A DNA stretch of 64,000 nucleotides from Carcharhinus amblyrhynchos (Eukaryota). The position numbers were made by a program, and so were the translations under genes. This document shows, one piece after another, positions 6,204 to 62,871 of this stretch. Under the pieces are notes generated by a model. The model worked only from the letters and a program-made list of their open reading frames with translations. It did no database searches and was not told where the DNA came from. Where the stretch lies: assembly GCA_965287045.1 (NCBI GenBank), contig OZ336878.1:105028001-105092000 (forward strand), given 5' to 3'. Each line of letters starts with the position of its first letter. Positions within the stretch are counted from its first letter, which is position 1.

Positions 6204-6205
6204 GT

Positions 6206-8135: not shown

Positions 8136-8161
8136 CGATTCCCTGTCCACGTTGTCTCGAT
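8136..8161 (-). pseudogene. Degenerate micro-exon copy (26 nt, frame-breaking)
   Basis: AG and GT present but 1 nt short. Confidence 0.45.
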
Positions 8162-9798
8162 CTGCTCAAGTGGAGAAGTAAAGCAAATTAGTCGTTCCAA
8201 ACCTCGAGCTGTCCCACAGAACTGCTCCGATTTCAAATAAAGTGTCATTGACCTTCATCAAGAATTCGCTTTCTTTTCAGAGAGCGACTTTCCTGTTTAA
8301 AATTCCAGTAGATCGCTCTGCATTTAAAATGCATTTGTCCGTAATATTTTGATTTCACTCTTACCAAGGCGAAATTGATGTAGTGGACTGCTAATGGGAT
8401 TTAATGATTTCTATTTGAAAGAACATAATTTATTTTCCGGAGCCCTTCCGGCTTGCCGTTCAATAGTGGTAATATCAAAATAGGAATCTCACTTTTTTTT
8501 TGGAAAACCAATCACCAACTTGTACTTTCTTTATGAGAAGTAATGGTTCTCGATAGATCTGAGATCAATCGTCATCAGAAGACGGATGGGATCTGCAGCC
8601 ATATAATCCTGCAGAGACGGGGTGAACATTTACCTCCTGTGCTGCTGGTAAGCGTGCACTATGATTTTGATACTGCAAAATTGATGGCACGGTAACATAT
8701 TTTATTGTGGGGTGGTGTAGCCTCGGGCTTGCGGGGACGGGGTTGGGGGGGGGGGGGGTAGTTGGGGAGGGGGGTAAGGGGTGGTGTACTTGAATGTGGT
8801 GGAGGAATTCCGTTCCTGCAGCCCAACAACCATATTGTGGACATTTGCTTTTGTAGTTGGTTTGATGAATTCCAGCAAATTAATCTTGTGGAAAATGGCG
8901 GAACTGTGTGTGTTTAGCTTGTGGTGTTGAGGCAGTAGGTGGGGAAGTTAAGTAATTTTGGCTGACCGCGTGTGGTTGAATATCAATGAGTTTGCTTTCC
9001 AATGGATGACGGTGAATTTATTGAATGCTTTTTGAATTATATCCATGATGATTGCTCGAGGCGTCGCAATAATACTCGTCAATTCTACATTGTAGATGTT
9101 GGACAGGATGTTAGGGAGGAGTCGGAATGTACAGAATGTGCATCCGAGCCTCTAATCTTCTGTTCCAGCAACAGTATTGATATAACTGACACTATTATGA
9201 TTATACCCAAGATGGACCATAAGAATTTTGATAAAGGTGAATTCAGTGATTCTATTGCCAATTAATCTCAATGGATGAAGTTATTTTGTTTCTTCTCATG
9301 AAGCAGCTTGTGGCCTTACAATTCTCTGGCCAAAATGATGCTTACCATTTGTCAAGCCAAAGCGGGAAAATAAGGAGGATCTTGGATCCATTCAACAGCT
9401 TTAAAAAATGTTGATAATCTAAGAAAACATCCACCACATAGTCCAGGTTCTAATGACTCACTAAATTAAGAATGCAAAAATCATATTATTAGCTATAATA
9501 AATCGACCATTACAGTGCGTTAATTGTATCCAGTTGAATCAAACATTTGCCAAATGAACAGATGAACCAATGGCATACAGTGATTGATGACATTATTGTA
9601 GATAAATGGAAGCAATGGTTAAGAGTAATTGAACTCAATACACAACACGACAATTTACGAGACGACATATGACCAACGTGCAAATGACATTATTTTTACT
9701 GTTGTCTTATTTAAGCCACTTCGAAATAATTAGTGGCATTAAGTCAGGTGGAGATTATTACAAGAAAGCTACGAAAAATTGGCTTCTTGCTATGTTAC

Positions 9799-9825
9799 CT
9801 GATCTTCTGCCTATTTTGTCTCGAT
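9799..9825 (-). CDS. Putative 27-nt micro-exon (DRDKIGRRS)
   Basis: ttgctttacttctccatttgagcag|27 nt|gtaaca, open phase-1 frame. Confidence 0.5.
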
Positions 9826-10815
9826 CTGCTCAAATGGAGAAGTAAAGCAAATTAATCGTTCCAACACTTGAACCATCCCATAGAACGTGTCAAATTTCAA
9901 ATAAAACCTCATTGATCTTCGTCAGAAATTCGCTTTATTTTCAGGTAGCGTCTTTCCTTTTCAAACTTTCATTACTATACCTCTCAATTTAAAATGGCTT
10001 TTTCCACAGTATTTTGATTTCAGTCTTGCCTAAATTAAATCTGTGCAATGCAAAGCCAATCGGAGTTAATGGTTTCCAATTGAAAGAACACTTATTTTCA
10101 GGCCCTCCTCCGTTTTGGTGGTTAATAGCCTTACCGTTAAATTCGGACTCCCTTTTATTAAACATCAAAACAACAAATAGTGCACTCTTTAGATTCATCC
10201 ATGAGAAACGTATTTGCGAGCGACAGCAGAATTAATGCTCATTAGGAGTTGGAGGTGACCTGAATCCATGAATACGTGCAGATCATGCAGTGTCCAAATA
10301 CCCAGATTGTTTTTTGTGTATGTGTTCTTTGATATTGGCACAACAACTGTGATGCGTTGGCAATATATTGTAAGGTCGTTTGTTTTTGGCATGAGTTTGG
10401 AAGGCAGACATGAAGGATACCTAAGAATTCAGTACCTACAGGTCAGCATTAACGTGTTTGTAAAATTCTATTGGAATTATTTTGATAAATTTCAGCATAC
10501 ATTTTTTGTGCACAATAATGGAACAGTGTGACTTTGGATTGTGTAGTTGACGGGGAGGTGAGGCATTTCAGGATTGTTGTCCGACAGGGTGCCGATTAAC
10601 GCCAAACCGTCTTCGATATTTCGGTTGGCGTTGTCGTTTTTCAGTGCTGTTGGATTTATGTCTATCAGTGTGGTTCGAGGCTATTCTAGCTCACTCCTGA
10701 ACTGTGCATTGCTGGTCGTCGGCAGTATTTTGGGGAATTTTCGGATGGAAAAGTAGTGATAACTTGTTCCACGTTTCCTAGATTCTAATCTATTATTGTA
10801 GCCGCCGTATGTATA

Positions 10816-12463
10816 GGGCCTGACTTGACCTATTGGAGCCTAAGGGCCGGATCCGGGCCTAATATGGATCCGAGCCCGGAATCCTTGTTCCAGCGCCCCT
10901 CTACGCTTCTTGCCGGCTCTGATACAAACTGCGCTGCGAGCGGGACGTGGCGCTGCCTGGATGTTCGTATCTCTGAACTGCGCATGCGCAGTTCGAAGAA
11001 AATCGTAGGCATCGCGCCCAGGCGCGCAGCTGCGGCCGTTTCTGCCTTCTGAAAGGTCGCTTCCTGCTGTGTATCCTGTGTCAGCGCCCCCCAGGCGGAA
11101 CAATTCCAATACAACATCAATAGTTCGCTTTGGAAGGCAGGTCTATGCCAGGCTGCATCTTGTTTTGGTGGTTCCACCTGAATGTCCCACAAGTCATATC
11201 CGATACAAGGAGCCTATAAAAAATATGATGCCAGTTGATGCTTCTCTTCTTCCGGAAGCTGAAAGGAGAACAAGATTGTGCAAACGTGTTCCCAAAAGAG
11301 CTAGAACGAAAGAGGAGCAATTTGAAGATGAATTTAAAGTTGGCAATTATAGCAAATTCTGGACAAAGAAGTAGTCTTCAAAATTTTGGATTTTAGAAAC
11401 AACCATCACTGGACTGCTTGACTGGTGTTGACGTCAGTGGAACTTTGACAAATGAACATTTTATTGTGATTCATTAATAAGTTGTGATTTTCTTTTAATG
11501 ATTCGACTCCATTTGTTTTATTAAAATGTGTTTCTACAGGAAGGATCCAGCGAATGAAAAAAATCCTTGCTTTGTTTCTATTATTACATAGCTTAAGTGC
11601 ACCAAGAAAATGATTTGAATGTTAATTAGGCAATATCCATTCACATGAATCCTGTGCCTTCTGTTCCCGACTATATCTGTGTGGATTTGACTTACGCATA
11701 TTTAGTTGTTTGTGCGATGTATCATTTAGACCAGTAGGAGGGGAAAAAAAACAAACAGTAAGCGGAGAGACTGGCAGTCTGACACAGATGATCCTCTGGG
11801 TGGGGGGAGGTGGGAGCGCAGTTGGAACTCTGATTGGGTGGGGTAAAGGAGGGGGCGCAGATGGATCTCTGGTTGTGGGGAGGAGGGAGCAAAAATGGAT
11901 CTCTGGCTGGGGGTGGCAGGGAGGTCCGCTGCCGCTTTGCGGGCAATCTTTCCTTCCCACCGGAGGAACGAATCTCTCCTCCCGGAGTGGGCGTGCGGCC
12001 ATGTCATCCCACCAAACCTTCAGGATCAAGTGATTCTTCGTTGAGTAAATGAAGCAAATCTGGCTGATTCCACAGTGGATCCGCATGAAAGCCGGCAACA
12101 AGATCAGGGACAACTCCAAGAGGAGACACTGGAGAAGGATCAAGCTGGGCCTCGAAAGGGATACACCATCACTGGTACAATGCCTGCCATAGCCATCTCT
12201 CCCGCTCTCTTGCCCCTACAGGGAAGAGCAATCTGTTGCTTACAGCGCAGTTCCGGAACGGACCCAAAGTCGGTAAAGTGCAATTTGGTGGTAGAGTTGG
12301 GCGCATGGTTCATTAAATTGACTTAAATGGATGCAAACACATGTAAATTGCCGGGCCGCCCAATTTCGCCCAAATCAGTTGTTGGTAAAGTCGCGATCTG
12401 CTCGGACTCAGGTGCAAATCGCGTTAATGGCCCAATGCCCAAATTTACCGCGATTTTTCGCCC
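10816..12463. mobile_element. GC-rich non-autonomous DNA transposon/MITE-like insertion, right end apparently lost, carrying a retrocopy
   Basis: Interrupts the monomer after TATA with GGGCCTGACTTGACC; internal palindromes; GGTAAAGT/TTTACCG subterminal motifs; the monomer resumes at 12464. Confidence 0.55.
11003..11755 (+). pseudogene. MRPL55: Processed pseudogene (retrocopy) of mitochondrial ribosomal protein mL55/bL31m; coding remnant 11069-11374
   Basis: NSNTTSIVRFGRQVYARLHLVLVVPPECPTSHIRYKEPIKNMMPVDASLLPEAERRTRLCKR...YSKFWTKK resembles recalled MRPL55 ([27 protein letters not shown]...MPIDL...EERRARLRKR...FWT); intronless; no intact ATG; ATTAAA at 11520 and A-runs downstream. Confidence 0.88.
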
Positions 12464-13810: not shown

Positions 13811-13837
13811 CTGATCGTATGTCCATGTCGTCCCGAT
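13811..13837 (-). CDS. Putative 27-nt micro-exon (DRDDMDIRS)
   Basis: tgtgcag|27 nt|gtaaca; two synonymous Arg codon changes versus consensus. Confidence 0.5.
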
Positions 13838-15443: not shown

Positions 15444-15470
15444 CTGTTCTTATGTCCGCCATGTATCGGT
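15444..15470 (-). CDS. Putative 27-nt micro-exon (DRYMADIRT)
   Basis: gagcag|27 nt|gtaaca, open. Confidence 0.45.
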
Positions 15471-17874: not shown

Positions 17875-17907
17875 CTGAGTTTGAGCTTCTGCCAATGTTG
17901 TTTCAAT
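17875..17907 (-). pseudogene. Degenerate micro-exon copy
   Basis: 33 nt, GC donor, acceptor AG lost. Confidence 0.4.
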
Positions 17908-19517: not shown

Positions 19518-19544
19518 CGGATATTCTGCCCATTTTGTCTCGAC
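19518..19544 (-). CDS. Putative 27-nt micro-exon (GRDKMGRIS)
   Basis: gagcag|27 nt|gtaaca, open. Confidence 0.45.
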
Positions 19545-19892: not shown

Positions 19893-19919
19893 CTGGTCTT
19901 ATGTCCATCATATATCGAT
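19893..19919 (-). CDS. Putative 27-nt micro-exon (DRYMMDIRP)
   Basis: gaacag|27 nt|gtcata (weak donor), open. Confidence 0.4.
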
Positions 19920-21505: not shown

Positions 21506-21532
21506 CTGATCTTATGCCCATGTTGCCTCGAT
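21506..21532 (-). other. Micro-exon copy with GC donor (DRGNMGIRS)
   Basis: gagtag|27 nt|gcaaca, open. Confidence 0.35.
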
Positions 21533-23423
21533 CTACTCAAATGTAGAAACAAAGTAAATTAATCCGTCGAACACTCAAGCTGTCCCACAGAATTCATCAG
21601 ATTTATAACAAGGTGTCACTGACCTTTATCAATAATTCGCTTTCTTTTCATATAGCCGCAATCCCTCTCAAGGACCGTTAGCTTGCATTCTTAATTTAAA
21701 ATGACTTTATCTGCAGTATTTTGATTTTATTTTTTCCCAAATTAACTTGATGTGATTGGAAGCTAACGGGAGGTTTTTGTTTTGGTTTCCAATTAAAATA
21801 ACTCCATTTTTTTCGCACCGCCCCCCCTCCTCTGTTTTGGCGGTTAGTATTCTTAACATTAAATTAGAAATCCACGTTCTCAACAACAAAACGTAAAATT
21901 TTATGCGCGTTATATTCACCCATGAGAAGTAGTGGTTGCCAGCTAGTGCAGAAATCAGCTCTCATGCGAATTTGGAGATTGAAATTTTGGAGATCACCTG
22001 CATCTATGAAAGCCTACAGACCATGCACTGTCCGAAAACCAAATTGATGTTTGTATGCGTATTCTCTGATTTTGGCACAGCAAAATTGATGGTACGGCAA
22101 TATATTTTAAGGTCACTTGTATTCGGCATCGTGTGGGAAGTGGAGGTGGGGGGAGGATGTCGAATAATTCATTTTCTACGGTTCAACGTTCACGTATTTG
22201 GAAATTTCATTTATTGGATCCGTTTTGGTGAATCACCTTCATCAGTAATTCGCGTTCCTTTTGGAAAACAACTTTCCTTTTCAAACATCCACCATTTCTT
22301 CTCTTAAGTTAAAATTTCCTTTACCTGCAGTATTTTGATTTCCTTCTTGCCCAAACGAAATTGAAATTCAAGAAGGGCTAATAAACATGTGCGTTATCAA
22401 ATTGAAAGGATACTATTTATTTTCTGGTCCTCCTCCGTTTTGATGGTTAATAGTGCTAACAATAAATTAACAATCCTTTTTTCTTTAACACAACAAATAG
22501 TATCCTCATTGCATTCATCCATCGGAAGAAGTTGTTGCCAGATCCAGCAGAAATCATTGTTCATTAGAATTTGGAGTTGATCTGCATCCATGAAAGACTG
22601 TAGAACATGCGCTGTCTGGAAACACAGATTGCTGATTTATGCATGTTCCTTGATATTGGTACAGCGAAATTGATGGCAAGGCAATACATATTGAAGGAAC
22701 TTATTTTCGGCATTGTGTGGGGAGAATGGGGACTTAAAAGATATCGAGGAATTCAATTTATACGTGTCAGCGTTGATGTATTTAGAAGTTGTTTGGATGA
22801 ATTTCAGCAGTTGAGTCTTGTGCACAATGATGCAGTGGTGCGAGATTGACTTCTGTGATTGGCGTGAAAGATGGGGTATTTCACGATTTTTGGCTTACTG
22901 AGTGCGTACGGGCATCCAGCCAACTGCATTATGTAGTTTGGCGTCGTAGTTGTTCAGTGTTGTTGGAAGTATATCTATCGTGGCAGGTTGCACCTATTCC
23001 ATTGTAGTTGAATAGCATGTTGCTGAAGGCGAACACCATTTTGGGCAGTTGCTGCATAGAGCAAGAAAAGATTAACTCATTACTGAATAATCGAATTTGC
23101 TATTATTAGCACAATTGAGGAGCATAACTGTGTAATAATTACAATCAAATGAAGCAAGCTTTTGCAGATTGAACTGATAGATCAAATACACAGAGAGACC
23201 GTGGACTACATTGTGCAAGTTAACGGAAGCGAACGCGAAGAACAATTGAAGCCAATTCAAATACAGACGAAATTTTGCGGAACAAGATGTGACCACATTG
23301 CAATAGGTATTCGTTCTGCTGATGACATAGTTAAGCAAACCCCTGAAAATATTAAGAGCGGCAAGGAGATACAGTTAGATTTTTCGAAGAGAGGTATGGA
23401 CAGTTGACTTCCTGAAATGTTAC

Positions 23424-23450
23424 TCGATCTTATGTTCATCTTGTTTCGAT
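23424..23450 (-). CDS. Putative 27-nt micro-exon (DRNKMNIRS)
   Basis: gagtag|27 nt|gtaaca, open. Confidence 0.4.
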
Positions 23451-25030
23451 CTACTCAGATGGAGAAGTGAAGCTATTGAATCGATCCAAAGCAGGAAGCG
23501 CTCCACAGAACTGATGAGATTTCAACTGACGTGGCATAGACCTTTGTCAGAAAATCCCTTTCTTTCTAGAACACCAATAATCCTCTTAATTGAAAAGATC
23601 CATTATCGGCAGTATTTTGTTTTTCAGTCTTGCCAAAAGTAAGTTGAAGTGATGGGAAACATATGAGGAATAATGATTTCCAATTGAATGAAATCTATTT
23701 ATTTTCTTGTCCTTCCCCATTATATTGTCTGGGAGCACAATTCGAGATTTCACTTATTGTAAAAAAAAACTTTTCTTTGGTTCCTTATATTAATTAATAA
23801 AAAATAAATAAAAAATATTTTTTGCCGGATAGATCTAAATTAATACTTATCAGAAGGCGGAGGTAGTCTGCATCCACGAAGCCTTGCAGACCATGCAGTG
23901 TGCGGGTCGCCCAGCATTATTATTTTGATACAGCAAATTGATGCACGAGAGTATATGTTCACGCCTGCTGGCCTTGACTAAGGATTGGCGTGGCTGGAAC
24001 ATGAAGTTTCTCGAGAAATTGTGTCTCCACATGTAAGTAGTCAGTTTAAAATTTGCTGTTAGAATTGATTTGATGAATTGCTGCAAACGAATTTTTTGAA
24101 GATAAATGCAAATGTGTGAGTTCGGCTTGTGTGGATACCGGGCTATATGCGGCCTTAACGTCTTAGTGACCGAAGGAACGCCGCTTACCATATAACTGTT
24201 TACATTCTATTGCGTGTCGTTAAAGATTTTGAGTGCCTTTGGAGCGATATCTATCATGGCAGGACGCAGATATTCATTCATAATTTTTCATCGTAAGTTA
24301 TAGATGTTGAACAGTTACTTTTGGCGGGTGGGGGAGTCCAATGGGGCAACAGTTGATTAACTCGTTGGAAGCTTCCTATCCCCTAATCTGCTGTTCTAGC
24401 CAGTTTTCTTTTTTTTGGTCGGCACTGTTCAGCTTCCAGTCATGAGTGAGACCAAGAAGTTTGATAACTATGCATTTAGCGATTGTATTGCCAATGATTT
24501 TTAATGGACTAAGGTTATGCATTTCTCTTCATGGAGCACAATGTTGCCTCACAATTATTTGGCCTGAACTGTACTTGACTACTTGTTGGGCCAAACCAGC
24601 AAAATTTGCATAAATTAACATCCATTAAGCAATTTGAAAATGTTCATATTCTGACACAAATACATCACGTTACCAGAGTGTGTGACCACTCGCGAATTGA
24701 ATAATTGAAACACATTTTATTCGTGATATAGTCAAACATCACTTTATGAGAACTGCAGTCTTCTGTGTCAAACAATGTTCAACTGAACAGATGGACTAGT
24801 GCCACACAGTGACTGAGGACATTACTCATCAAGTAAATGAGCGCCAGCGCCAAGAATAATTGTTGTCAGTATTTAATATAGGCGACATTTTACGTGTCAG
24901 ATAAGGCCAGGGTGCAAGTGGTATGAGGTTTACTGTTGCCTGAGCTAAGCACCCCTTCCAAAATGTAATGAATGGCGTTGAGGCTCATTTCGCTTGCTGA
25001 AGGACAAAAGGATGGAAGTTGATTTTTTGA

Positions 25031-25050
25031 TTTGTCCATCCCGTCTCGAT
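25031..25050 (-). pseudogene. Micro-exon remnant, donor deleted
   Basis: A deletion removes the exon 3' end and GT. Confidence 0.4.
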
Positions 25051-26337
25051 CTGATGAAATTCAGCACTAAGGCCAATTCGTCCTTCCAAAGCTCGAACCG
25101 TCCGACCGAACTGATCAGATATCAAATGATGCTTCATTGATTTACGTTAGTAATTCGTTTTTTTTTTAGCTAACCGCTTTCCTTCTCAACAAACTATCGC
25201 TTGCTCAATCAGTTTAAAATTCAATTAGCTACGCAATCTTGATTCCGTTCTTGATAAAATGAAATAGATGTGATTGGAAGCAAAAGGGAACTTACGATTT
25301 CCAATTGCAGAAACGATATTTATTTTCTTTGCCTTCCTGGGTTTTGGCAGACAACAGTATTAACCATGAATTAGGAATCCCTAACAAAGAGAAACACGAA
25401 CTTTTACGGCCTTTCCATTCATTCACGAGAATAAATGGTTGCCATCTAGAGTTGAAATTAATTCTTATCAGAAGGTGGAGGTTATCTGCCTCCTTGAGTA
25501 AAGCTGAAGAGCATTCAACGCATGTGTAACCACAGTGTTGACAGCAAACTTTTTTTTTCTATGATTGTGACACTGCGAAATTGTTGCACAGCTATATGTT
25601 AATATCGAGTGACATTGAAATGGTGTGGGCCGAGGAGTCTTGTGGAGGAGTTCCATTTCTACACTCCAGCGGTCATGTGTTTGGAATATGCTTTTGGAGT
25701 TGTTTTGATGAATTCGAGCAGACGAATATTGTCCAAGATGGTGAAATGGTGAAAGTTTGGCATATGGGGCCGAGCGGGTTGTTGGGTTCTTAAAAGATTG
25801 CTGGTTAACGGAGTGCATTTGGACAACAACCGTCTGCCTTCTATCGAAAAGCGCTGACGTTGCTGAGTGTTGTTGGAGCTATGCCTTTTATAGCATGTCG
25901 AAGCTTGTCAATCATACTCATTTATTTCCGTTGAAGTTGCTAAACAGGATTTTGGGGAGGAGTCGGATATAACACGAGATGTGTGACTTGTTTCACAGTT
26001 CCTCGCTTCTAATATCCTGTTCATTCTTAGCACCACATTTATACTACAGTCCCTGATCTGTTATTAATCAAGATAGTCGCCAAAGATTGAAACACATTGT
26101 ATTCAACGATTACATTGCCTTTTTCTCTCTATGGATTATTTTTATCTGTTTATGTGCTTGGAGTAGTTTTGTGCCTCAAAATTATATTCCTGAATGTTAC
26201 TTAACACATGTTTTAACCCGGTAAAACAGAAGAACGTGAATTCCGGTTGATTAGCTTAAACGTTTTGAGCATCTCTGAATAGGAACAACATTAGTATATT
26301 CTTGGACCACTCGGTCATTGAATAGTGCAGAATCCTA

Positions 26338-26671
26338 TCAGAATCATGGAATCTCTACAGTGGAGAAAGAGGTCATCTGGCCCTTCGAGTCTGCATGGAC
26401 GACAATCTCAACAAAACCCCATATCCATATCTCAACGCATTTAACCGCTAATCCCTCTAACCTACGCAACTCAGGACACTAAGGGGCAATTTCAGCATGA
26501 TCAATCAACTTAACCATCTGTGGACTGGGAGGAAACCGTAGCATCCGAAGCGAACCCACTCAGGCATAAGGAGAATTTGCAAACTCCACACAGACAGTGA
26601 CCAATTCCGGAAATCGAACATAGGTCGCTGGAGACGTGAAGCAACAGTGCTAACCATTGTGAAACCGTGCC
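26338..26671 (-). mobile_element. HE1/V-SINE-like SINE (HOR copy 1)
   Basis: Reverse SINE core and head; CCTAT on both flanks. Confidence 0.88.
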
Positions 26672-26992
26672 TATTATTAGCGGACGTAATCTTGCATCAA
26701 TGTGTAATAATTACAGGCAACTGCATGAAACATTTGCAAACCGAAGAGATGGACCAGTGGCAGGCTATGACCAGAAAACAATTCTGTAAGAAAAAAAAAT
26801 AAGCAAACACCGAATAAAATTGATGTCAATACGACTAATGACGGAGCTTGAAGAGACAAGATCTGACGAGAGTGCAATGGATATGAGTTTAACTGGTGCC
26901 TTGCTTAAGCAAGTCTTCCAAAACATTGAAAGCGGCATTTAAGGACATTTCGATGAGGGAAGAGAGATAGTAATGAATTCTTGATATGTCAC

Positions 26993-27019
26993 CTGATCTT
27001 AAGTCCAACATGTCGTGAT
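26993..27019 (-). CDS. Putative 27-nt micro-exon (DHDMLDLRS)
   Basis: gagcag|27 nt|gtgaca, open. Confidence 0.45.
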
Positions 27020-28118
27020 CTGCTCAAGGAGAGATGTCAACGCAATTAATCATTCCAAAGATTGAACCGTCTCACATAACTGATCCAATCACTAATTTTA
27101 TCTGATTGGCCGTCATCAATATCTCGCTTTCTATTCAGGTAGCATCCCACCAGCTCAATTTTCCACCACTTCACCTCTTAATTGAAAGTTACTTTGTGAG
27201 CAGTTTTCTCATTTCAGTCTTTCAGAATGAAATTGATGTGATGGGAGGCTGATGGGAATTAACGAATTCCAAGTGAAAGAATGGTGGGGTTTTTTTGGCT
27301 GTTAGTAGCGTTAGCATTAATTTAGGACTCCCTCTTTTTTGTGTTAAAAAAACAACTACCATGTTTTTCTGTTTATTCATGAAAAGTACTTTCTACTCGC
27401 TAGGCAATAAACTAATGCTGCACGAAGGCTGAGATCATCTGCATCGATGAAACCCTGCAGGCATTTCAGCGTCGATGTATTTAGAAATTGACATTGAAGT
27501 TGTTTGGATGAATTTCAACAGTTGACTCTTGTGCACAGTGATGCCGCGGTGTGAGATTGACTTCTGTGATTGATGTGAAAGATGGGGCATTACACGACTG
27601 TTGGCTTACGAAGTGCGTATGGGCATCAAGCCAACTGCATTATATAGTTTGGCGTTGCAGTTGTTCAGTGTTGTTGGAACTAACTCTGTCATGGCACGTC
27701 GCAGCTCTTCCATTTCAGCCTGAATTGCATTTTGCTGATGGTGAACAGCATTTTGAGCAGTTGCCGGATGGAGCAAGAAGAGAGTAACTCATTACTGAGT
27801 AATCCAAATTGCTATTATTAGTGGAATCGTGTTATAATTACAACGAAATGAATCACACTTTTGAAATGGAACAGATAGGTCCTACAGTGACTGCAGACAT
27901 CATTGTACAAGATAATGGAAGCAAACACGAAGAACAATTGAAGTCAGTCCAAATACAGGCAAAATTATGTTGAATGAAATATGACCACAGCGCAATAGGT
28001 ATTAGTTTTGCTGATGACATAGTTAAGGAAACCTCTCAGAATACTAAGAGCGGCAATGAGGTACGCTTAGATTTTCCGAAGAAGGGAGGTATGGAAAGTT
28101 GAGTTCCTGACATGTGAC

Positions 28119-28145
28119 CAGATCATATGTTCATCTTCTCTCTAT
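28119..28145 (-). pseudogene. Micro-exon copy with in-frame stop
   Basis: 27 nt, AG/GT present, TGA in phase 1 and TAG in phase 2. Confidence 0.4.
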
Positions 28146-29721
28146 CTGCTCAGATGGTCAAGTAAAGCTATTTAATCGATCCAAACACGAAGCGGCCCGC
28201 AGAACTGGTGAGATTTCAAATGACGTGTCATAGGCTTTTGTCAGTAAATCACTTCTTTTTCTAGAGCGCCAATAATCCTCCTAATTGGAAACACCCATTA
28301 TCGGCAGTATTTTCTTTTTAGTCTTGTCGAAAGCAAGTTGATGTGATCGGAAGCATCTGGGAAATAATGATTTCCAATTGAATGGAATCTATTTTTTTCT
28401 TGCCCTTCCCCATGATGTCGGCTGATAGCATGATTTGAGATTACTCTTACTGTAAAAAAAACATATTTTTGGTTCCTTATATTCATTAATAAATAAATAT
28501 GTTCGTTGCCGGATAGACCTAAATGAATACTCATCAGAAGGCGAATGTGCTTTGCATCCCTGCAAGTCATCAAGCACTTCAGACCATGCAGTGCACGGGT
28601 ACCCACAGTGCTGGAGGTAAGAGTGCACTATTATTTTGATACAGCAAATTGATGCATGACAATGTTTGTTAACGTCTGCTGATCTTGTCAAAGGTTGGTA
28701 TCGCCGGAACCTGACGTTTCTTGAGGAATTGCGTTTCCATACGCAAGCAGTCAGTTTGTAATTTGCTGTTAGAGTTGATTTGGTGAATTGCCGCAAACGA
28801 ATTTGACGAAAATAAATGCAACTGTCTGAGTTTTGCTTGTGTGGATAAGAGGCTATATGCGGTTGTCATGTATTGGTGGCTGAAGGAATGCCGCTGATCG
28901 TACAGCTTTTTTCCGTTCTAATAAATGTCGTTAAAGATGTTGAGTGCCTTTGGAGCGATACCTATCATGGCAGGACGTGGCTATTCATTCATAATTTGTC
29001 ATCGTACTTTTTTGTGGAGAAGTCAAATGGGACAACAGTCAATTAACTCGTTGGACGCTTCCGACCAACTAATCTGCTGTCCTAGTCAGACGTTTTTTTT
29101 GACTGGCACAGTTCAGCTTTCAATCAAGAGCGAGACGAAGGAGATTGATAACTGTAGATTTAGCGATTGCATTGCCAATTAATTTTAATGGAATAAGTTT
29201 ATGCCTTTGTCTTCCTAGAGCACTATGTTGCCTCCCGATTCTCTGGGCCGAACCCTACTTGGCTAGTTGTCGGGCAAAACCTGGAAAATCTGCATGAGTT
29301 AACATTCCATTACTCAGCTTGAAAATGTTCGTAGTCTGACACAAATGCATCACTTTACCAGGGCGTGCGACCACTTGCTAATTAAATAATGCAAAACCAT
29401 TTTATTCGCGACAATGGTCACATATCACTGCACAATAATTTCAATCATCTGAGTCAAACAATGTTCAACTGAACCGATGAACTAGCGATACACAATGACA
29501 GATGGCATTATTCTAGTAGTAAATGAACGCCCAGGCCTAGAGAAATTGAAGTCAATATCACTAAAGACGACATTTTACGTGATCAGATCAGGCCAGAGTA
29601 CAAATTGTATGAGGTTACTGTTGCCTAAGCTAAGCAACCCTTCCAGAATGTTACAAGTGACACTGAGACTCATTTCACTTGCTGAAGAGAGGTACGGAAG
29701 TTTGAATCCTTGATACGTTAG

Positions 29722-29748
29722 CTGACCTTATGTCCATCATGTCTCGAT
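29722..29748 (-). pseudogene. Micro-exon copy with dead donor (DRDMMDIRS)
   Basis: GT changed to CT. Confidence 0.4.
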
Positions 29749-31040
29749 CTGCTACAAATCAGCAGTAAGGCCAATCAGTCATTCCAAAGTTCGAACCGTC
29801 CCACAGAACTGATCAGAAATCAAATGACGTATCATTGACTTACATCAGTATTTCTCTTTCTTTTTTCAACTAACCGTTTTCCTTCTCAACAATCTTTCAC
29901 CTCAATGAATTTAACATTCCATTAGCTGCAGCATCTTGATTCCGTTCTTGATAAAATAAAATTGATGTGATGGGAAGCAAAATGGAACTTACGATTTCCA
30001 ATTAAAGAAACGCTATTTTTTGTTTGCTCCCTAGGTTTTGGTGGTCAATAGTACTCAATTTGAATTAGGAATCCCTCGTTTTCTAAAGAAACAAGAACTT
30101 TTACTGTTTTTTATATTCATTCATGAAAATCACTCGTTGTCATCTGGAGTTGAAATTAATGCTCGTCAGAATGTGGATGTGACCTGTATTCATAAGAAAA
30201 AGCTGCAAAACATTCAAGGCATGTTTCACCACAGTGTTGACTGTAAGCTTTATCCATAATTTTGACACAGCAAAATTGTTGTACAGCAATATATACGTTA
30301 ATGTTGGGTGGCATTTGAAGGGTGTGGGCATGGAATCTTGTAGAGGGATTTCTTTTTCACACATCAGCGGTCATGTGTTTGGAATTTACTATTGGAGTTG
30401 TTTTGATGAATTCCAGCAGACGAATATTGTCCGAAATTGTGAAACGTTTAAAGTTTGACATGTGGAGCCGAGGGTGTCGTTGGGGCCTTGAAGTATTTCT
30501 AGGTGATGGAGTGCGTTCGGACAACAACCGCCTGCTTTCAGCTGGAATTCGCTGATGTTGTTAAGTCTTGTTGCAGTTATGTCTTTCATAGCATGTCGAG
30601 GTTTTTCAATCATACTCCTTAATTGTACACTGAAGATGGTAAATAGGATTTTGGGGAGGGGTCGGACATAACACGAGATGTGCGACTTGTTTCACAGTTT
30701 CTAGCTTCTAATCTTCTGTTCATTCTTACCACCATATTTTTACATCAGCTCCTGTTCTGTTACTAATCAGGATAGTCGCAATGGAATTGAAAATGTTGTA
30801 TACAAAGATTACTTGCCGTTTACTCTTCATGGAAGAGGTTTTTTTTGCTTATCTGCTTGGAGTAGCTTCCTGCCTCAAAAGTTTGTTCCCCGAATGCTAC
30901 TTACCACACGCCGGGCCTATCCCGCTAAAACAGAAGAACGTGAATTCCGGCTGATGACTTAAATTTCTTGAGATTCTCATGTAAGGAACAACCTTAGTAC
31001 ACTGTTGAACCACTTGGTCATTGAATAATGGAGAATCCTA

Positions 31041-40838: not shown

Positions 40839-40865
40839 CTGATCCTATGTCCATCATCTCCCGAT
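40839..40865 (-). CDS. Putative 27-nt micro-exon (DREMMDIGS)
   Basis: gagcag|27 nt|gtaaca, open. Confidence 0.45.
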
Positions 40866-42754
40866 CTGCTCAAGGAGAGATGTCAAGTCAATTAATCGTT
40901 CTAAAGATTTAACCGTCGCACATAACTGATGCTCAAATGGCATGTGATTGGACGTAATCAATATCTCGCTTTCTATTCAGATAACATCCTACCAGCTCAA
41001 ATTTCCATCATTTCATCTCTTAATTGAAAATTACTTTGCGTGCAGTTTTCTCATTTCACTCTTGTCAGAATGAAATTGATGTGATGGGAAGTTAATGGGA
41101 ATTATGAATTCCCAGTGAAAGAATGGCATTTTGTTATTTGGCAGTCCTCTGTTTTGGCTGGTAATCGCGTTAGCATTAATTTGGGAATTCCTCTTTTTGT
41201 GTAAAAAAAGGAACACCAACTTGCATGTCCTTCTGGTCATTCATGGAAAGTACCTGCTACTCGCTAGGCCATAACCTAACGCTCATCAGAAGGCCGAGAT
41301 CTTCTGCATCGATGAAACCCTGAAGACAATGCAATGTACATATGCCCACATTGCTTACATTAAGAGCGTTCTTTGTTTTTGACAACGAAATTGATGGCAC
41401 GGCATTTTTCTTTTAAATTCTGCTGGTTTTGGCATGTTTTGGGAGAGACTGGGAGGATGTCTAGGAATTCAGCTCCTACCGTCTAGGCCTCATGCCATTG
41501 GACATTGCTATTGAGATGCTTTGATAAATTTCAGCATGTGACTGTTTCGCCAAACGATGCAGCCTTGTGATTTTGTCTTCTCTACGTAGGCAGAACCTTT
41601 TACCGACTGTTGGTTGACGGAGTGCAGTTGAACCTCAAGCCACTGTTTTGTTTTGTATTGCGTTAAAGCTGTCGAGCATTGTTGGAATTTCATCGATCAT
41701 GGCATGTCGAGGGTATTCGAGCCTCTTGCCAAGTTATAAGTTGTAGATGGTGGGCAGCATTTCGGGGAGGTGCAAGATGGAACAGGAAATAATTGATATG
41801 TTAGCCGATTCTTGGACTCTTGTGGAACTGAGAGATCAGTTGGGACCTTTAAGGATTGTTAGTTGACAGAGTGTGGTTGAACATCAAACTGCCTGTTTTC
41901 CATCGGAATTCTTTGAAATTGTTGATTGTACTTGGATGGACGTCGATCATGACAGTTCCACTGAATCTTAGTCCTTAGTTGTACGTTGTAGATGCTGGAG
42001 AGGATTTTGGGGAGGAATTGCAGGATAAAAGAATTGTTTAAGTCGTTACACACTTCCCAACCTCAAATCTGCTTTTCTCGACACAGGATTTATATGCCCT
42101 ACATCGTTCATTTTCTAGTCCAGATCGACCATCCGGATTGTATTGTTATTTAATATCAATGGATAACGGTTAAGTATTTCTCTTATTGGTGCAGTTTGTT
42201 GCTTCAAAATTTCATGGCGGGAATGGTACTTCCCACCTCTCCGGCCAAACCATAAAAATCAGAAAACTTGAATTTCAGTTGATAGACTTGACAATCGTTA
42301 TAATCTCAGACAAATGTATCACTTCAGTACAATGTGTGACAACTCGCTCATTGAATAATGCAAAATCTTGATCTTCTCAGATACATTCATCACTTCAGTA
42401 GGCTGTGTGATCATTCACTCATTGAACAATGCAAAATCCTATTATTAGGGAAATTGTCAATCCTCGCTGTCTGAGAATAAGAGTCAACAGAATCAAAAAT
42501 TTTAAAATTGTAACGATGGACCAGCGGTACACAGTAACTGAGGAGATCATTCGTCAAGTGAAGGAAAGCAAGAGCTAAGGAAAATTGAAGCCAATACCAC
42601 CAACTAAGAAATATTACTGGACAATATATGACCAACGCACAACAGGTATTAGTTTCATTAATGCCATTGCTAAGGAAACCTTCCAAAATAGTGAATTTAA
42701 GGCATATTTAGATAATTGGAAGAAAAGTACAAAACTGGCTTATTGATATCTTGC

Positions 42755-42781
42755 CTGAACTGATGTCCATCTTCTCTCGAT
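42755..42781 (-). pseudogene. Degenerate micro-exon copy (DREKMDISS)
   Basis: GC donor; acceptor changed to TTG. Confidence 0.4.
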
Positions 42782-43769: not shown

Positions 43770-46700
43770 ATTAAATAATGTTCAAACATCACTCCAGTAT
43801 GGGACACAACTTTCAACGCAAAGCATGCATTCATGTTCGCTTCCTTTCAAGCATCAGTGTTGTGTGTGTGGTGAGCAGCAATTCCGGTAGGTCCTTCCCA
43901 GTGCAGTTTGAAACAATTCCTCCGTCATTATGCCATCACTGAAATATATTTCCCTGCTGATAATCGTCCCATGTCTCGCTGTTCAGTTCCCTTTGGGTTT
44001 CGACGACCTGTGAATGAAGATTTTGTTAGTGCAGTGCAGCATCTCTTCAATAATGCTTTCCATTTCCACTGCTTTGGGTGTTATGAGGCGCTTATTGCGT
44101 GCCTCACAGATCTCCCCATAATGACTTTGTAGGATACTCGTCCGATGGTTCTGTTGGGGCTTGCTGTCATTATCATTGGTGCAATGGACAAGGCCTCTGG
44201 CAATTTTAAACCAGTCTCCCTACACAATTTATCTTTTTTTTGTCAGAATGCCCTTCAGTTTTTCTACTGCTGCAATGTATTGTGGCTGATAGATACAGGA
44301 CAGTCCTTGTATACATTCAAGTCCTTTAATGATCTACTTAACGACATCACCAATGGTAAAATGACGTCCATTGTCACTTGACATGATGTCAGGTATGCCA
44401 AACCTAGACATGGTTTCCCTTAGTAAGACCCTGACTTCCGTTATTGAATCATTTCTTCCTGTAGGAACTGTTTCTGTCCAGCTGGAAAGTAGATCTACAA
44501 TTACCAATACATCATTAAAATTCATGAACTTGAGTATTTGCATAATACCCGTCTGGAAATGTACGAAACAGCCCCAAGTCTGTGGTTGTAAAGTAGCTTG
44601 TAAGCTAGTTCTTTCCCCTTATTCAATTTAAGAAGCTGCGGAATACGAGGCATGTCATGACTGTTGCAAAATATGCCCCATTCCCCCGTTTCCTGCATGA
44701 TTGAAGTTATGACATGCATGAGCAAGCCAAGGGAGTTGTTTGTCTTATGGTGACCATGCGGCCGTCGTGGGGCAACCAAAGACCAGATGGGATTTGATAA
44801 CAACTGTTGTCAGCACAGGTCAATTTCTCTGTCACATCAACAGTGGCTTGCAGTTGTACGTCGTCAATCGGCAGATAGCGCCAGCTGAGCAGGTTGCTAT
44901 TTGTAAACACCGAGCTACCGCTTTCCCGTTGATTCAGATGGTTTCGGATCGAGCTGAATTGTGAGCTTGAGCTCTTAACAGGGACACATCATCCCGTCCG
45001 CGAGTATGAGCGACACATTTAATTAATGGAAGAAGGACGGCATTTCTATTGCTTTTGATATTTCATTCAATAAGAGATCTACGATCGATTTGTATCTTGG
45101 AAGAGGTGAGAACGACACGTAAATTGAGAGCTTGTCAAACTCATCAACGACTCCATGCAATAAGCAGACTCTATATAGATAACGACTGCAGCGTTCTCTG
45201 GTCAGATGCAGGCCCGTGTGAGAGCGAGAAGCTCAGCCGCCTGTGCAGAGCAGCCGGAGGAAAAAAATCCAATTTCTAGGGCAGAGCGTGGATCCGGATT
45301 TGAGACTTCCATCGGCTGCTGTCGTGCTGAGCCATAAGTAGAATATATGAAGCCAGGATTTGGCAGAGGATAATCTTTCAGATCGTGCCTCAGAGTTTTG
45401 ATAATTTGTACCACTTGTTCAATAGTATCTGGTCGCTATGACGGAAAATGTACTATTACACCGAAATGATTGCCCATATAATGTCCTGTACCACATAGTA
45501 TAACACGGACGGTGGTACCACTGTGGGTCTTAAAGAGGGTTTAGGCGACCGGGGATAATTCGAGTGTCATGTTTAGGTCTTTAGGAACACAGTGAAGGTA
45601 TGCTGTATGAAACAGAATATGTTAATGTGCGGTTTTGCAATATGTACTTGTTGCCACCGCAACCTTTGGGTCATAATAGGTATAGGTACAGGTGCCAACT
45701 TTTAAGTGTTGTTTCAAAATGTGGAAACCGCACCTGGACGACGTGTTTCTGCAGCAAACCTTGGGTGACTGTTATAGTCTTTGAGAAAGATGCATCATTG
45801 TAATCTGTCACCACTATACAGCAAGACTCGTAGGCAAGGTGTGTTCTGTGAGTGGAAATATATTTCCATATCTTTGTTCAAACAAAACTCGCAAACTAAT
45901 TGCTCGCGGCATACGGATGAGTGTGCAGCGCAACTTGCACAGTAAATCTCTGCCCAGAACGTGGATCGGGACATTATTAGAACTTTTATGAAAACCTTAC
46001 TCTCCTGAATGAATCTGAACGGAAAAGGGGACTCTGTCTGACAATGACACTGAGAGGGGTTAGCCTGTTCGCCTTACTGCATGAACAGAAGACGTGCGTT
46101 TCTGCAAGGTGGAGTAGTCGGCGCTTTAAACCGAGAGTAAGATGCCCCTATATCCATCTGGAATTCCCGAACGTTGACCCTGTTAGTAATGGGAACCATT
46201 GGTTCCTATGAAATTCGATATTTACCTGCTGTTACTAATTGCGAAAATGTCTGGCAGTGTCTGTCAGAAAATCTCTTGTCATGGGGTGAACATGAGCCTG
46301 AGGACTTGAGCCTAATGCTTAGACAGGATATATGGCCGGGTTGTCCTAAGGGCTGCCGAGACCCCTGATTAATATTGGGTGCATCTCGACAGTTGTAAGA
46401 GGCACCAATAGAACCCTGTTCTGTAACCTTTCTGCTCCTCGGCCTCCTCCTCTGCCTGTTGTGTTTGGACCCGGATATTGTCGCTGAGGTGCTCCCTGAA
46501 GGGCAGCGGGATCCACTACCTTTACTTCCATGCATTTTCGTTGGCCATCTTCCGCTTGTGTTCAACCTGGCGCTGGCAATGTAAAACATTTATAAATTCT
46601 TGCAATGGTTTTGTTATCTATACAATGTAAGTTGTCCTGAACATTTGTTTCATAAGAGACTGCAATCCGATTACAATGCCACTCACAGATTCCGACCCTC

Positions 46701-49840: not shown

Positions 49841-49846
49841 CGTTAC

Positions 49847-49873
49847 CTGATCTTAGATCCATTCTGTCTCGGT
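49847..49873 (-). CDS. Putative 27-nt micro-exon (DRDRMDLRS)
   Basis: gataag|27 nt|gtaacg, open. Confidence 0.4.
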
Positions 49874-51804: not shown

Positions 51805-51831
51805 CTGAATCCGTGTCCAACATGTCTCCCT
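51805..51831 (-). CDS. Putative 27-nt micro-exon (EGDMLDTDS)
   Basis: gagcag|27 nt|gtaaat, open. Confidence 0.45.
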
Positions 51832-53804: not shown

Positions 53805-53831
53805 CTGATCTTAAGTCCAACTTGTCTCGAT
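53805..53831 (-). pseudogene. Micro-exon copy with dead donor (DRDKLDLRS)
   Basis: GT changed to AA. Confidence 0.4.
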
Positions 53832-55330: not shown

Positions 55331-55357
55331 CTAAACTTCTTTCCAACTTGTCTCGAT
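55331..55357 (-). CDS. Putative 27-nt micro-exon (DRDKLERSL)
   Basis: gaacag|27 nt|gtagca, open. Confidence 0.4.
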   Translation of the reverse strand: METSWKEV

Positions 55358-56699: not shown

Positions 56700-57950
56700 C
56701 AGTGACAATTACATTTGGACGTACATTGCAATGACTATAACCAGAATGAAAAGTGCACATTTTGGAATGTTCTTGAGTAAGCCCCCTAACCATCCTCCTA
56801 CACCACAAGATTATCCACACCAGTCATTTTTTTCCACTCTGGTATTGGATGTAAGAGCTGCAATTGATTATGTGTAATTTCAACATTTTTTTCTACGTAT
56901 CCGTTCTGACTGTGATAGAAAAAAAAACAAGGCTCATTTATGACAGAGCATGCACATGCCTGGGCTGCACGGGGAAATTCCAAAGCCATACGATTCTGTA
57001 TGACCAAGATAGACAGGGAGTGGATCTCAGGTTGCAGGTATTAGAAAGCTCCCACTGCGTTATTTTCTATCATTTCCGTGCTGACTGAGATGTTGATGAT
57101 GGCTCTCTCTTAGGAGGTTATACTAAGACCACGGAAATGACTCTCAAAAATCAGTGGAAGCCAGTTTCCCTAATGACAAGCGGGTTCAGGACATCACGCT
57201 TATGGCGTCCCACAAAAGGGACATAATTTTAAGTTCAATGAGCATAGATTTGTTTTATGCCACAAGCATCAAAGGCTATGTACCTTACGGGGCCTGTGCT
57301 AACCAGTCGATCTGTGATATCTAATAGGCATTGGGGCCACAAAGCCAAAAAATCCTAGATGCAAAATTGTGGGGTAACAGTGGGTGTGGATTTAATAAAA
57401 AAAGGTAATCAAATTGGAGGCTAACAAAGAATTGAATTGAAGTCTACAATTTTGTCCGAGCCTCAATACACAGAGGGCGGTAATATAACCAGACTCGCCC
57501 TGAGACCCCCTCCATAAAAAATTGAATTGGTGCTGCGAAATCAGACACTAGATGACCACAGCCAATAAGTGCTATTATAGATGAGATTGCGAGCCCACAG
57601 AGAGTCCCACTTAGTATTACTGTTTAGGTGACTGAAGTGGCTGAGAGGCGGATTCTGCCATGCGGCATTCTAAAATGTTGGGGATGATAGCAGTTGGGCT
57701 TGAGAATCGGAATAACGTCTCAATGGTGTTGTTCTCAGCAATATACTGGCAATGACTATAGCCTGTATTTCCGACTTCAATACTTCCTTTGGTGAAATTC
57801 CTGCGGGCTCACAGATGTGCTACTCCCTTCGGGACCGTTTGGCTTTGCTGGCGCCGCGAAGTTGGCATATTTCTAATTGGGACTAGCATTTGGTCTTCAT
57901 GCGTAAATTATTAGAAACGAATGCAAAGTAATCACAGTTCTGGGGACGAG
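56700..57950 (-). pseudogene. env: Gamma-type retroviral env remnant (ERV-C)
   Basis: Furin site RHKR (57196-57207), NPL..R.TGFH fusion region, AIINIS, ISD-like VIQNRMALEF..AAQACACSVINEPC, TM GGWLGGLLKNIPKCALFILVIVIAMYV; many stops; upstream boundary uncertain. Confidence 0.8.
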
Positions 57951-60446: not shown

Positions 60447-61021
60447 TGTGTCGCAGCTTGGAGATCCGAAGGGCCTCTCCTTGTACTTTACTGTTACTTG
60501 ATCTTGGATTCATCGAATGTATTGCTTTTAAATCTCAATGGATAATGGTTATGTGTTCTCTATTCTTCGAACAGATGGTCTTTCCCTATTCAGTGGCAGA
60601 ACATTATTTGCCACTTGGGGTGCCCAAGACGAGATAAGGGACAAGGGTTGGATTTCACTTGATAACCTCTAAAATGTTGACATTCGCAGGCAATCACACC
60701 CCTTGGTAGAGTACATGACCGCTGGTTCATTGGAAATGGACATGTGCGTTAACTAACAATTGGTCATTGAACGGATGATCCAATGGCATATATTGGCTGT
60801 GGACCTCATTTTCCGAAATTGATGGAAGCAATCTCCAAGCAAACCTAAAGAAAGTAACAGGGAAGCTGAAACTTACGACGAGGCAAGACCAGATTGCAAT
60901 ATCTATTATGTCTACCTGCGCCACAGTTAAGCATCACCTCCGAATTATTAGCAATGCATTCGAAACAAATGTAGACTCTTGGAAGAAAATAGGTGTTGAA
61001 AATGTCTTCCACATATGTTGC

Positions 61022-61048
61022 CTCATCCTATGTGCAACATGTCTGGCT
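61022..61048 (-). pseudogene. Degenerate micro-exon copy
   Basis: GC donor and phase-1 TGA. Confidence 0.4.
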
Positions 61049-62844
61049 CTGCTCAAGTGGACAAGTAAAACTGATTGATATTTTCAAAGTTTCATACGTG
61101 CCACAGAATGTATCCGATATTTAATGATGAAAAATTGCCCTTCATCATGAGTTCACTTTCTTTTCAGGAAGCCCCTTTCCTGCTCAAACGTTCTTTGCTT
61201 CTCCTTTTAATTTTAAATTCCAGTGCCTGTATTTTTTTTTATTTTTTCAAAATTAAATTGAGGCAATGGGAAGCAAAAGGGCACTAATAATTTCCAATTG
61301 ACGGAAAACTACTTATTTTCTGGCATTCTTGCGTTTTATTACGTAACAGCGGTAATATAAAATTATGAACACGACTTTTTTTGTAAAACAAAGAAAATAA
61401 ATTTGTGCATTGTGTGTATTCATTCATGAAACGTAGAAGTTGTTGTTTTTACCCTATTTTAATGCTTATCAGAACGCGGCGTTAATCCGCCCCCATTAAG
61501 CCCGACATAACATACCGTTTATGTGCAACCACAGTGCTGTGAGAAACTGCGTTTCTTGATTTTGGCCTAGAGAAATTGCAAGTATGGCAATATATTTCAA
61601 TGTCACGCTGGTTTTGCAATGACGGTAATGGGTGGGGGGGGGGGGTGGTCGGGGAGGTGGAGGGGCGAGTGGGTAACTTGAAATTTGCAGAGCCATTCTC
61701 TTTCTACAGGCCAGCGGTCAGGGGTATGGAATTTGCAATTGGAGCATTTTTTCTTAAATTATAGCAGATCCGTCTCTGAAACAATGTTGCCATTATGTGA
61801 AGTTGGCTTGAAGGTTTGAGGGGGATGGTGGGGAGAACATCAAGCCTTATGTCTTCGATTGGATATCGTTGAGTTTGCTGAATGTTTTCGGAACAATATC
61901 TATCCAGTTCGGTCGAGATTATACAATTGCACTCCTTAATTATGCTTTGTAGATGTTCGTCTGAGCTTTTGGAAAGGAGTCGGCTCGGGCAAGACGTAAT
62001 TAAAACATTGCACTCTTCCTAGCTTTTTGCTTTCTATTCCAGCCACAACATTTATATGGTTGGCACTGCTCAGTTTCTAAATATGTTGATAACCGCGGAT
62101 TCAGTGATTTCATTGCAATTTAATGTCAATGTTTGACATTATGTTTTTTCACTTCTTGGATCAAGAGGCACAATATGCATGTAGGATATTGTCCGTTTCC
62201 TCTGGTTCCAACCATAGATTCCCTTCACTATCCATGACAGGCCAAACCCTCCCCTTCGCTAACTTCTTTCCCTTTACATACGTGTAAAATGCCTTTGGAT
62301 GTGACTGAATCCTGTTTTCGAAGGGTGATTCATGACCTCTTTAAGCACTCCTAACTCTTCTCGACTCACAATTCTGTAGTGCCTATGCTGCTAGACAATG
62401 GGCTGCCCAAACCGAAAAAAAAAGTTTAATTTCGGTTGATAAGCTTGAAAACTTTGATAACTTCTGACAAATACACCATTTTTGTGCTATGTGTGTCCAC
62501 TCCATCATTAAATAATTCAAAATCATGTCCTTAGCAGAAATTGTTTTATACCACTAAGTAATAATTAAAGTTAGTTGAATCAAACATTTACAAATTGAAG
62601 AGATGGGCCAATGGTGCACAATTGCTGTGCAAATCATTCTGCAAGTACATGGAAACAAGAGCCAGGAAACATTGACGTCAACACCACTAAATGCGAAATG
62701 TTAATCGACGAGATTAGACAAACAATGTTTAGTTTGTTGATGCCTGAGTTAAGCAATCCATTCAAAATATTAAATGCAGCATTGTGGCACATTTAGATGA
62801 TTCGAAGAAGAGAGGTATGAAATGTTCACTTCTTGATGTGTTAC

Positions 62845-62871
62845 CTGATCTGATGTCCGTCTTTTCTAGAT
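62845..62871 (-). CDS. Putative 27-nt micro-exon (DLEKTDIRS)
   Basis: gagcag|27 nt|gtaaca, open. Confidence 0.45.

Follow-up and report, generated by a model that had tools for sequence, protein, structure and literature searches.

The stretch of DNA described here, hereafter the window, is 64,000 nucleotides (nt) long and comes from the shark Carcharhinus amblyrhynchos (contig OZ336878.1, here C9; window = C9:105,028,001-105,092,000). It belongs to the interior of a long run of micro-exons on the minus strand, the host locus, and contains about half of an array of tandemly repeated exon+intron units, each with one exon of 27 nt. Positions in the array and the locus are also counted from the window start. 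A preliminary description, made from the letters of the window alone, had reported 27 such units on the minus strand, and all of them were recovered where it had placed them by a profile scan. The features are as follows, in transcript order for the array copies; "open" refers to phase 1.

1-64000, minus: interior of the host micro-exon locus, C9:103.955-106.33 Mb, or window about -1,073,000 to +1,300,000
L139:5183-5752 (C9 103.955 Mb), minus: terminal B30.2 exon of the host
8136-62871, minus: 27 of the 52 array units, from the profile scan
22767-41328, minus: younger higher-order repeat in which a block of 3 units (about 4.7 kb) occurs four times at about 79% identity
62845-62871, minus: micro-exon DLEKTDIRS, AG/GT, open
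61022-61048, minus: micro-exon, GC donor weak, TGA in frame, likely skipped
55331-55357, minus: micro-exon DRDKLERSL, AG/GT, open
53805-53831, minus: dead copy, donor lost
51805-51831, minus: micro-exon EGDMLDTDS, AG/GT, open
49847-49873, minus: micro-exon DRDRMDLRS, AAG/GT, open
42755-42781, minus: dead copy, acceptor lost, GC donor
40839-40865, minus: micro-exon DREMMDIGS, AG/GT, open
38881-38907, minus: micro-exon GRDMMDIQS, AG/GT, open
37257-37283, minus: micro-exon DREKSNIKS, AG/GT, open
36091-36117, minus: micro-exon DRDKLNTRS, AG/GT, open
33895-33921, minus: micro-exon DRDMMDIRS, AG/GT, open
32298-32324, minus: micro-exon DRDKMTIRP, weak GC donor, open
31673-31699, minus: micro-exon DRDEADIRS, AG/GT, open
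29722-29748, minus: dead copy, donor lost
28119-28145, minus: copy in which AG/GT are weak and TGA is in frame, likely skipped
26993-27019, minus: micro-exon DHDMLDLRS, AG/GT, open
25024-25050, minus: dead copy, deletion and donor lost
23424-23450, minus: micro-exon DRNKMNIRS, AG/GT (weak donor), open
21506-21532, minus: micro-exon DRGNMGIRS, GC donor, open
19893-19919, minus: micro-exon DRYMMDIRP, AG/GT, open
19518-19544, minus: micro-exon GRDKMGRIS, AG/GT, open
17881-17907, minus: dead copy, acceptor lost, stop, length changed
15444-15470, minus: micro-exon DRYMADIRT, AG/GT, open
13811-13837, minus: micro-exon DRDDMDIRS, AG/GT, open
9799-9825, minus: micro-exon DRDKIGRRS, AG/GT, open
8136-8161, minus: 26-nt copy, one base short, frameshift if spliced

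The 27 copies first described are real, but the array is not confined to the window: a profile made from 22 window copies, scanned over 464 kb, gave 52 exon+intron units, all of them on the minus strand, spanning window -26,343 to +96,676 (C9:105.00-105.12 Mb, 123 kb), with 27 of the 52 inside the window. In a DNA search of the whole 2.9-Gb genome all 31 matches fell at this single locus. A gapped 727-nt profile added one exon-spanning but degenerate unit at about 78.9 kb and some partial units, which are left out of the 52-unit counts; since it added no more than these, the choice of units by an ungapped profile skews the counts only slightly. The period is mostly 1-2 kb per unit, and the monomers align over about 700 nt with 70-75% identity to the column majority and a peak at the exon and its splice sites; no second conserved island was seen in the conservation profile of the aligned 727-nt monomers. 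Their tree is star-like, apart from one younger 3-unit block repeated four times. No parent exon of the array was identified, the best candidate reaching a mean identity of 49% against a median of 33%. A search of sequencing runs with window 31,500-41,000 listed 19 runs with no RNA set among them, which speaks neither for nor against transcription. Contigs of four of these runs, with four other organism labels, cover the array region (30, 30, 29 and 22 of 30 bins); this cover is of genomic type, running through the introns with a few per cent divergence (e.g., 198 differences in 3,605 nt), and the joins listed in these contigs derive from short interspersed repeats. Because these contigs cover it, the array is, judging from sequence, older than the split between the source shark and the four other organism labels.

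Other sequences lie between the units. A retro-copy of MRPL55 (window 10,990-11,371, plus strand), which is intronless and has a GC-rich 5' leader and no in-frame start codon (Pfam Mitoc_L55, E 9e-25), lies between two of the units in antisense orientation. Decayed retroviral-like fragments are found in the large array gaps, at 44,337-44,618 and 56,801-57,040 (minus strand); their matches to integrase (rve, E 1.5e-6) and env (TLV_coat, E 1.4e-3) are both below cut-off. Window 1-7,000 is part of a 10.7-kb array gap, with a GC-rich start, a poly-C run at 357-413 and no Pfam match.

The copies are preserved in a manner expected of exons. AG and GT or GC are kept in 39 of the 52 units, 37 of these 39 are open in phase 1, and 37 of 52 are thus fully intact (AG, GT/GC, 27 nt, open phase 1), compared with a mean of 9.4 and a maximum of 18 in 500 neutral simulations in which each unit evolved at its own flank divergence. 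For the window units alone the figure is 19 of 27 (GT or GC donor; neutral mean 4.9), and in the 3' group of the array it is 14 of 15. The counts of the preliminary description agree with this: AG is kept in 25 of the 27 window copies, and 17 copies combine AG, GT, 27 nt and an open phase 1 with peptides identical to those it listed, while its 19 GT and 5 GC donors become 18 and 4 when the donor is taken strictly at exon+27, the original figures holding at the shifted donors of the copies at 8161 (26 nt) and 17907 (lengthened). On the monomer tree the acceptor G changed once and the donor G five times, fewer than in any of 90 flank G columns (mean 11.8), whereas the donor T and donor positions +3 to +5 showed no significant conservation. 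Exon length is altered in three of the 52 units, against a mean of 15 and a minimum of 6 in 19 equal flank windows. Splice Gs and exon length are therefore more conserved than flank positions, the comparison that had been proposed at the outset. When junction codons are counted, the 39 splice-intact units contain 2 stops in phase 1, 6 in phase 2 and 39 in phase 0, and both splice-intact carriers of a phase-1 stop have weak splice sites. The copies differ by about 26% in their flanks, and about a quarter of them are dead. There has been, in sum, past selection on splicing, length and frame and not on residues.

The exons around the array are of the same kind. An untrained splice-site scan of 864 kb, array units included, gave 82 open 27-nt exons on the minus strand versus 6 on the plus strand, and 37 versus 2 of 36 nt. 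A trained classifier, with the array apart, found 254 minus-strand and 7 plus-strand exons in the part read, 1,374 of 2,250 kb, from which about 400 host micro-exons, array apart, are extrapolated over the whole run. All 254 are 18-36 nt long and multiples of 3, the classifier having scanned multiples of 3 from 15 to 48 nt only, and a separate scan having taken all lengths of 12-60. Read in phase 1, host exons encode E/K/L-rich helical peptides, with 36 and 27 nt often alternating (21 residues, three heptads), and 21 non-array paralogous exon pairs have a ratio of non-synonymous to synonymous substitution rates (dN/dS) of 0.28 (0.16-0.47). By outward sampling the run extends from about 106.33 to 103.96 Mb on C9, 2.37 Mb with the array in the middle; the nearest host exons beside the array lie at window 103,187-104,750 and -43,190, and gaps between exons reach 45 kb. 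Multi-exon blocks are duplicated inside the host (C9:104.23-104.33 versus 104.63-104.74 Mb; also window -100 to -160 kb).

At 103.955 Mb the run terminates with a divergent B30.2/SPRY exon (SPRY E 1.9e-9). In the PDB its best match is BTN3A1 (E 3.9e-14), with TRIM21 about as good; its PRY part has diverged, and in paralogues this part falls short of the Pfam cut-off. Neither a BTN V-domain query nor C2-set_3 gave an immunoglobulin (Ig) match at C9:103.96-106.4 Mb, and at 106.32-106.51 Mb there is no credible RING motif. A hydropathy scan of minus-strand open reading frames (ORFs) at 106.31-106.37 Mb gave three hydrophobic stretches without exon support. A Pfam match to Inv-AAD was not supported on follow-up. 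CR1-type long interspersed nuclear elements (LINEs) are present in the region, and amid LINEs within the host lies a stop-terminated importin-alpha (KPNA5-like) fragment, probably a pseudogene (L026:808-1260, minus strand, window about 115 kb); synteny guesses drawn from it (CAB39L, PHF11, FAM162, RFX) failed for this reason.

The relationship of this run to known proteins comes from the SPRY domain. A search with it finds XP_038671249.1 of the catshark Scyliorhinus canicula, a protein of 945 amino acids (aa) that consists of coiled coil and a 63% identical SPRY only, and residues 7-775 of this protein map in order onto micro-exons at 104.199-103.96 Mb. Residue 7 corresponds to an internal phase-1 exon, and exons run on upstream of it without a break. 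For another catshark model, XP_038671246.1, 15 exons at window 172,399-108,974 match in collinear order, versus two weak rows on the plus strand. Because flanking exons map in order onto catshark models, phase 1 is fixed for the neighbourhood of the array. Other family members occur in Narcine, Hemiscyllium, Rhincodon, Cetorhinus and Callorhinchus. RefSeq isoforms of the catshark, Narcine and Callorhinchus relatives differ by blocks of 9 or 6 residues, which indicates skipping of micro-exons in these models; such isoforms generally rest on RNA data.

No RING or B-box family was found in six family proteins (P0003, P0161, P0158, P0163, P0010, P0038) and no Ig family in eight relatives and P0003. 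Because its relatives lack RING, B-box and Ig domains, the host is neither a TRIM nor a butyrophilin gene, though it is built like a BG/BTN tail. In a B30.2 tree of 17 rows, thinly sampled and midpoint-rooted, the B30.2 domains of the family and three on C16 stand apart from the TRIM/BTN-type rows (100/100). By eye the relatives' sequences show no transmembrane (TM) segment, and their N-termini are charged and without an obvious signal. A single-sequence AlphaFold model of the catshark protein gave long helices at low confidence (predicted local distance difference test, pLDDT, 55) with the SPRY unfolded, and a search of the ESM Atlas gave generic coiled-coil matches only (0.76).

These data bear directly on the question of whether the array is simply an ordinary satellite in which AG and GT stand 27 nt apart by chance. 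Its tandem, single-locus arrangement and nearly uniform site rates would suit a satellite, but the splice Gs, length and frame are preserved far above neutral, and strand, length class and phase are shared with hundreds of flanking exons having catshark orthologues; this reading, which we consider scarcely credible, is already refuted by the constraint tests and the catshark mapping. It is also very improbable that the units are non-coding cassettes, i.e., splicing decoys, exons for nonsense-mediated decay or other regulation, or repeats of the type that host small nucleolar RNAs (snoRNAs) or microRNAs (miRNAs). Synonymous and non-synonymous changes in the array exons are both about 35% below neutral, which fits selection at the RNA level, such as on splicing enhancers, and the residues are free. 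Nevertheless, a length in multiples of 3 and the avoidance of stops point to translation, Rfam has no match at E <= 1 in the 64-kb window, and the monomer has no second conserved island. That the array is, or once was, a spliced part of the host gene may be held with high confidence.

Whether it is so used today is less certain, and a number of results weigh against continued use. The array dN/dS is 1.11 (0.85-1.53), so that the dN/dS check proposed in the preliminary description detected no constraint on residues, unlike that on splice sites, length and open frame. The gamma shape for monomer sites is 11, i.e., most sites have similar rates. Only 4 of 10 units are intact in the 5' group (neutral mean 1.5, maximum 6). 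In the 12 youngest copies, divergence since duplication is 0.104 in exons and 0.096 in flanks, and splice positions at 0.05 are not significantly slower (p = 0.16); selection may have relaxed in them. Stops within the exon are rare in phase 2 also (3 versus 13), and therefore stop avoidance alone is no proof of phase 1. No transcript joining array exons was seen in the sequence data examined, and the match of XP_038671246.1 stops 12 kb ahead of the first array unit. The nine-residue repeat, for which the preliminary description had proposed a protein search, was not found among relatives: array-like repeats are absent from all 18 family proteins (best window score 13.5, self 19.9). Frames of 35-40 aa with three array exons gave no homologue at E <= 10 among 83 candidates, as a weak query with most columns intron-derived. 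Beyond the window, micro-exons and a terminal B30.2 exon were found, but the first exon and promoter of the host were not. There is in addition some circularity in the 254:7 ratio, because the classifier had minus-strand exons like the catshark protein as its training set; the untrained scan is free of it.

Several of these observations would be explained if the array coded at the time of its amplification and is now a decaying relic, skipped as a block in an intron of a working host. The dN/dS of about 1, the near-neutral youngest copies, the poorly preserved 5' group, the missing array peptide in the 18 proteins and the retro-copies and retroviral debris between units all agree with such decay. 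We nonetheless regard it as unlikely, since intact copies number 14 of 15 in the 3' group and 37 of 52 in the whole array although the flanks have diverged by about 26%, and 10 of the 12 youngest copies retain both splice sites, with only one AG/GT change in 40 site-observations since duplication. The array probably represents tandem copies of one 27-nt phase-1 exon and its introns inside a micro-exon locus ending in B30.2, of which most intact copies are likely still spliced into some transcripts. Both halves of the original suggestion, an unannotated gene grown by exon+intron duplication or its decaying relic, hold: a host locus exists, and conservation of the splice sites, the exon length and the open frame exceeds that of the flanks, while about a quarter of the copies are dead and the youngest are near-neutral.

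A different question is the nature of the host. The 2.37-Mb run could consist of several tandem genes or part-genes derived from large segmental duplications, with the array in a unit lacking B30.2; this is a substantial possibility, and it concerns the host and not the reality of the exons. For the catshark region RefSeq has at least two separate models (XP_038671246.1 and XP_038671249.1), the duplicated blocks mentioned above are paralogous over 100 kb, exon gaps reach 45 kb and 876 kb of the locus are outside the sequence read. On the other side, a single SPRY was found from 103.96 to 106.38 Mb, with the best 150 of 318 candidates scored, the internal position of residue 7 in the 945-aa model is followed upstream by exons without a gap, and about 600 ORFs, a subset of the non-repeat ORFs, have mobile-element or pseudogene matches only in Pfam. 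More tentatively, the whole run might be a single 2.37-Mb transcription unit with more than 400 coding micro-exons (exceeding the 363 of titin). Its product would be a coiled-coil/B30.2 rod about 4,000 residues long, with combinatorial splicing determining how long each form is and what it is made of, and the 52 array copies would serve as a spacer that is hypervariable and sequence-free; the locus would then be a vertebrate counterpart of the schistosome micro-exon genes in a chondrichthyan-specific B30.2 family.

The array could have arisen by about 50-fold amplification of one 27-nt exon+intron unit through unequal crossing-over, in an old burst, to which the star-like tree points, followed by fourfold duplication of a 3-unit block. 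As all exons would be multiples of 3 in phase 1, any unit could be duplicated or drop out without a frameshift, and copies with dead sites would be skipped; since any copy number stays in frame and dead copies are skipped, selection would act on splicing, length and stop avoidance and not on residues. The product would be a cytosolic coiled-coil rod, in which one 36-nt and one 27-nt exon together give 21 aa or three heptads, and would carry a B30.2 head that binds a ligand. The array peptide is rich in D/R/S/M, less helix-prone than other 27-nt exons (p = 3e-10) and without their hydrophobic/heptad pattern, and for this reason the array may insert up to about 330 charged, less helical, probably flexible residues into the rod. 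By analogy with the B30.2 of TRIM and BTN proteins, one might guess at a role as scaffold or innate-immune sensor. We infer the expression of the array, the single transcript and the cellular role.

Among known systems, the comparison with butyrophilin and BG tails made in the preliminary description was the right one. According to passages of one source (PMC5938342), chicken BG/BTN tails form a coiled coil encoded by numerous symmetric micro-exons, whose first codon is split so that the preceding exon supplies one base, and vary in exon number and alternative splicing. The host coiled coil is likewise made from symmetric phase-1 micro-exons, BTN tails and host both end in B30.2, and a shark BTN-like gene with 27-nt phase-1 tail exons lies 1.3 Mb away. 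However, BG exons are 21 nt long, number about 27-38 and stand behind Ig-V and TM without B30.2, whereas the host has hundreds of 27/36-nt exons, no Ig found and a B30.2 in its own clade apart from TRIM/BTN-type rows, and the array exon itself lacks the heptad pattern. In schistosome micro-exon genes most exons are symmetric, measure <=36 nt and can be left out with the frame kept, as passages of PMC8293314 describe; host exons are also symmetric and <=36 nt, and a relaxed or high dN/dS is a further likeness, but the schistosome proteins are secreted or at the surface, with signal peptides, and are schistosome-restricted, with no homology and no B30.2. As for titin, parts of PMC12241362 give 363 exons in human and 300 in elephant shark, and describe the PEVK region of titin/connectin as an elastic spacer of a giant gene which grew by multi-exon duplication and is length-tuned by splicing. 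The giant scale and exon-duplicated spacer are similar; the host has no Ig/Fn3 domains and far smaller exons, and its locus is about 8 times longer. Unlike in snoRNA/miRNA-host arrays, no small RNA per intron was found (Rfam, 64 kb; no second conserved monomer peak). The RefSeq relatives XP_038671249.1 and XP_038671246.1 (S. canicula), XP_072329362.1 (S. torazame), XP_069775425.1 and XP_069775384-90 (Narcine) and XP_042191566-8 (Callorhinchus) are host orthologues or paralogues that share its exon peptides, their order and its divergent B30.2; they are pieces of 213-945 aa under misleading automatic names (zinc-binding protein A33-like, TRIM39/58-like, golgin-like), none with the array. TRIM proteins (RBCC-B30.2) also have a coiled coil followed by PRY-SPRY, and TRIM clusters flank the locus, but RING and B-box were not found in host-family proteins, and the TRIM coiled coil is not known to be built of 27/36-nt exons.

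Similar genes are found nearby and elsewhere in the genome. Upstream of the host, the next SPRY lies at 106.384 Mb, at the end of another, shorter coiled-coil/B30.2 micro-exon gene (C9:106.384-106.49 Mb, L142-L151, minus strand), which is orthologous to catshark XP_038672306-10; the catshark protein starts with tandem 9-aa repeats, another single-exon amplification. At C16:63.03-63.17 and 66.44 Mb (L192-L199) there are three B30.2 domains of the same clade, two with upstream 27-nt exon candidates. The butyrophilin-like gene at C9:102.64-102.67 Mb (L084-L086, minus strand) has Ig-V, C2, six to seven 27-nt phase-1 tail exons and B30.2. Very large PRY-SPRY (TRIM/BTN) clusters are present on C9 at 96-112 Mb, C41, C46, C53 and C73, where many of the candidates lie (150 of 373 scored).

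No description of this gene or family was found in the literature searched, at title and abstract level. What is new is that the run extends over 2.37 Mb, that two RefSeq fragments map to it, and that the array has 52 copies with constraint on splicing and frame only. The locus is dystrophin-sized, is cut by annotation into small misnamed pieces and may be the vertebrate gene with the most exons. With it, a family of coiled-coil/B30.2 proteins lacking RING and Ig is defined in cartilaginous fishes, beside TRIM and butyrophilin clusters. Moreover, with 52 dated copies of one exon, the array is a clean natural experiment on how micro-exon proteins grow, in which selection is seen on splice sites, length and frame and none on residues, and dead copies would be tolerated by skipping.

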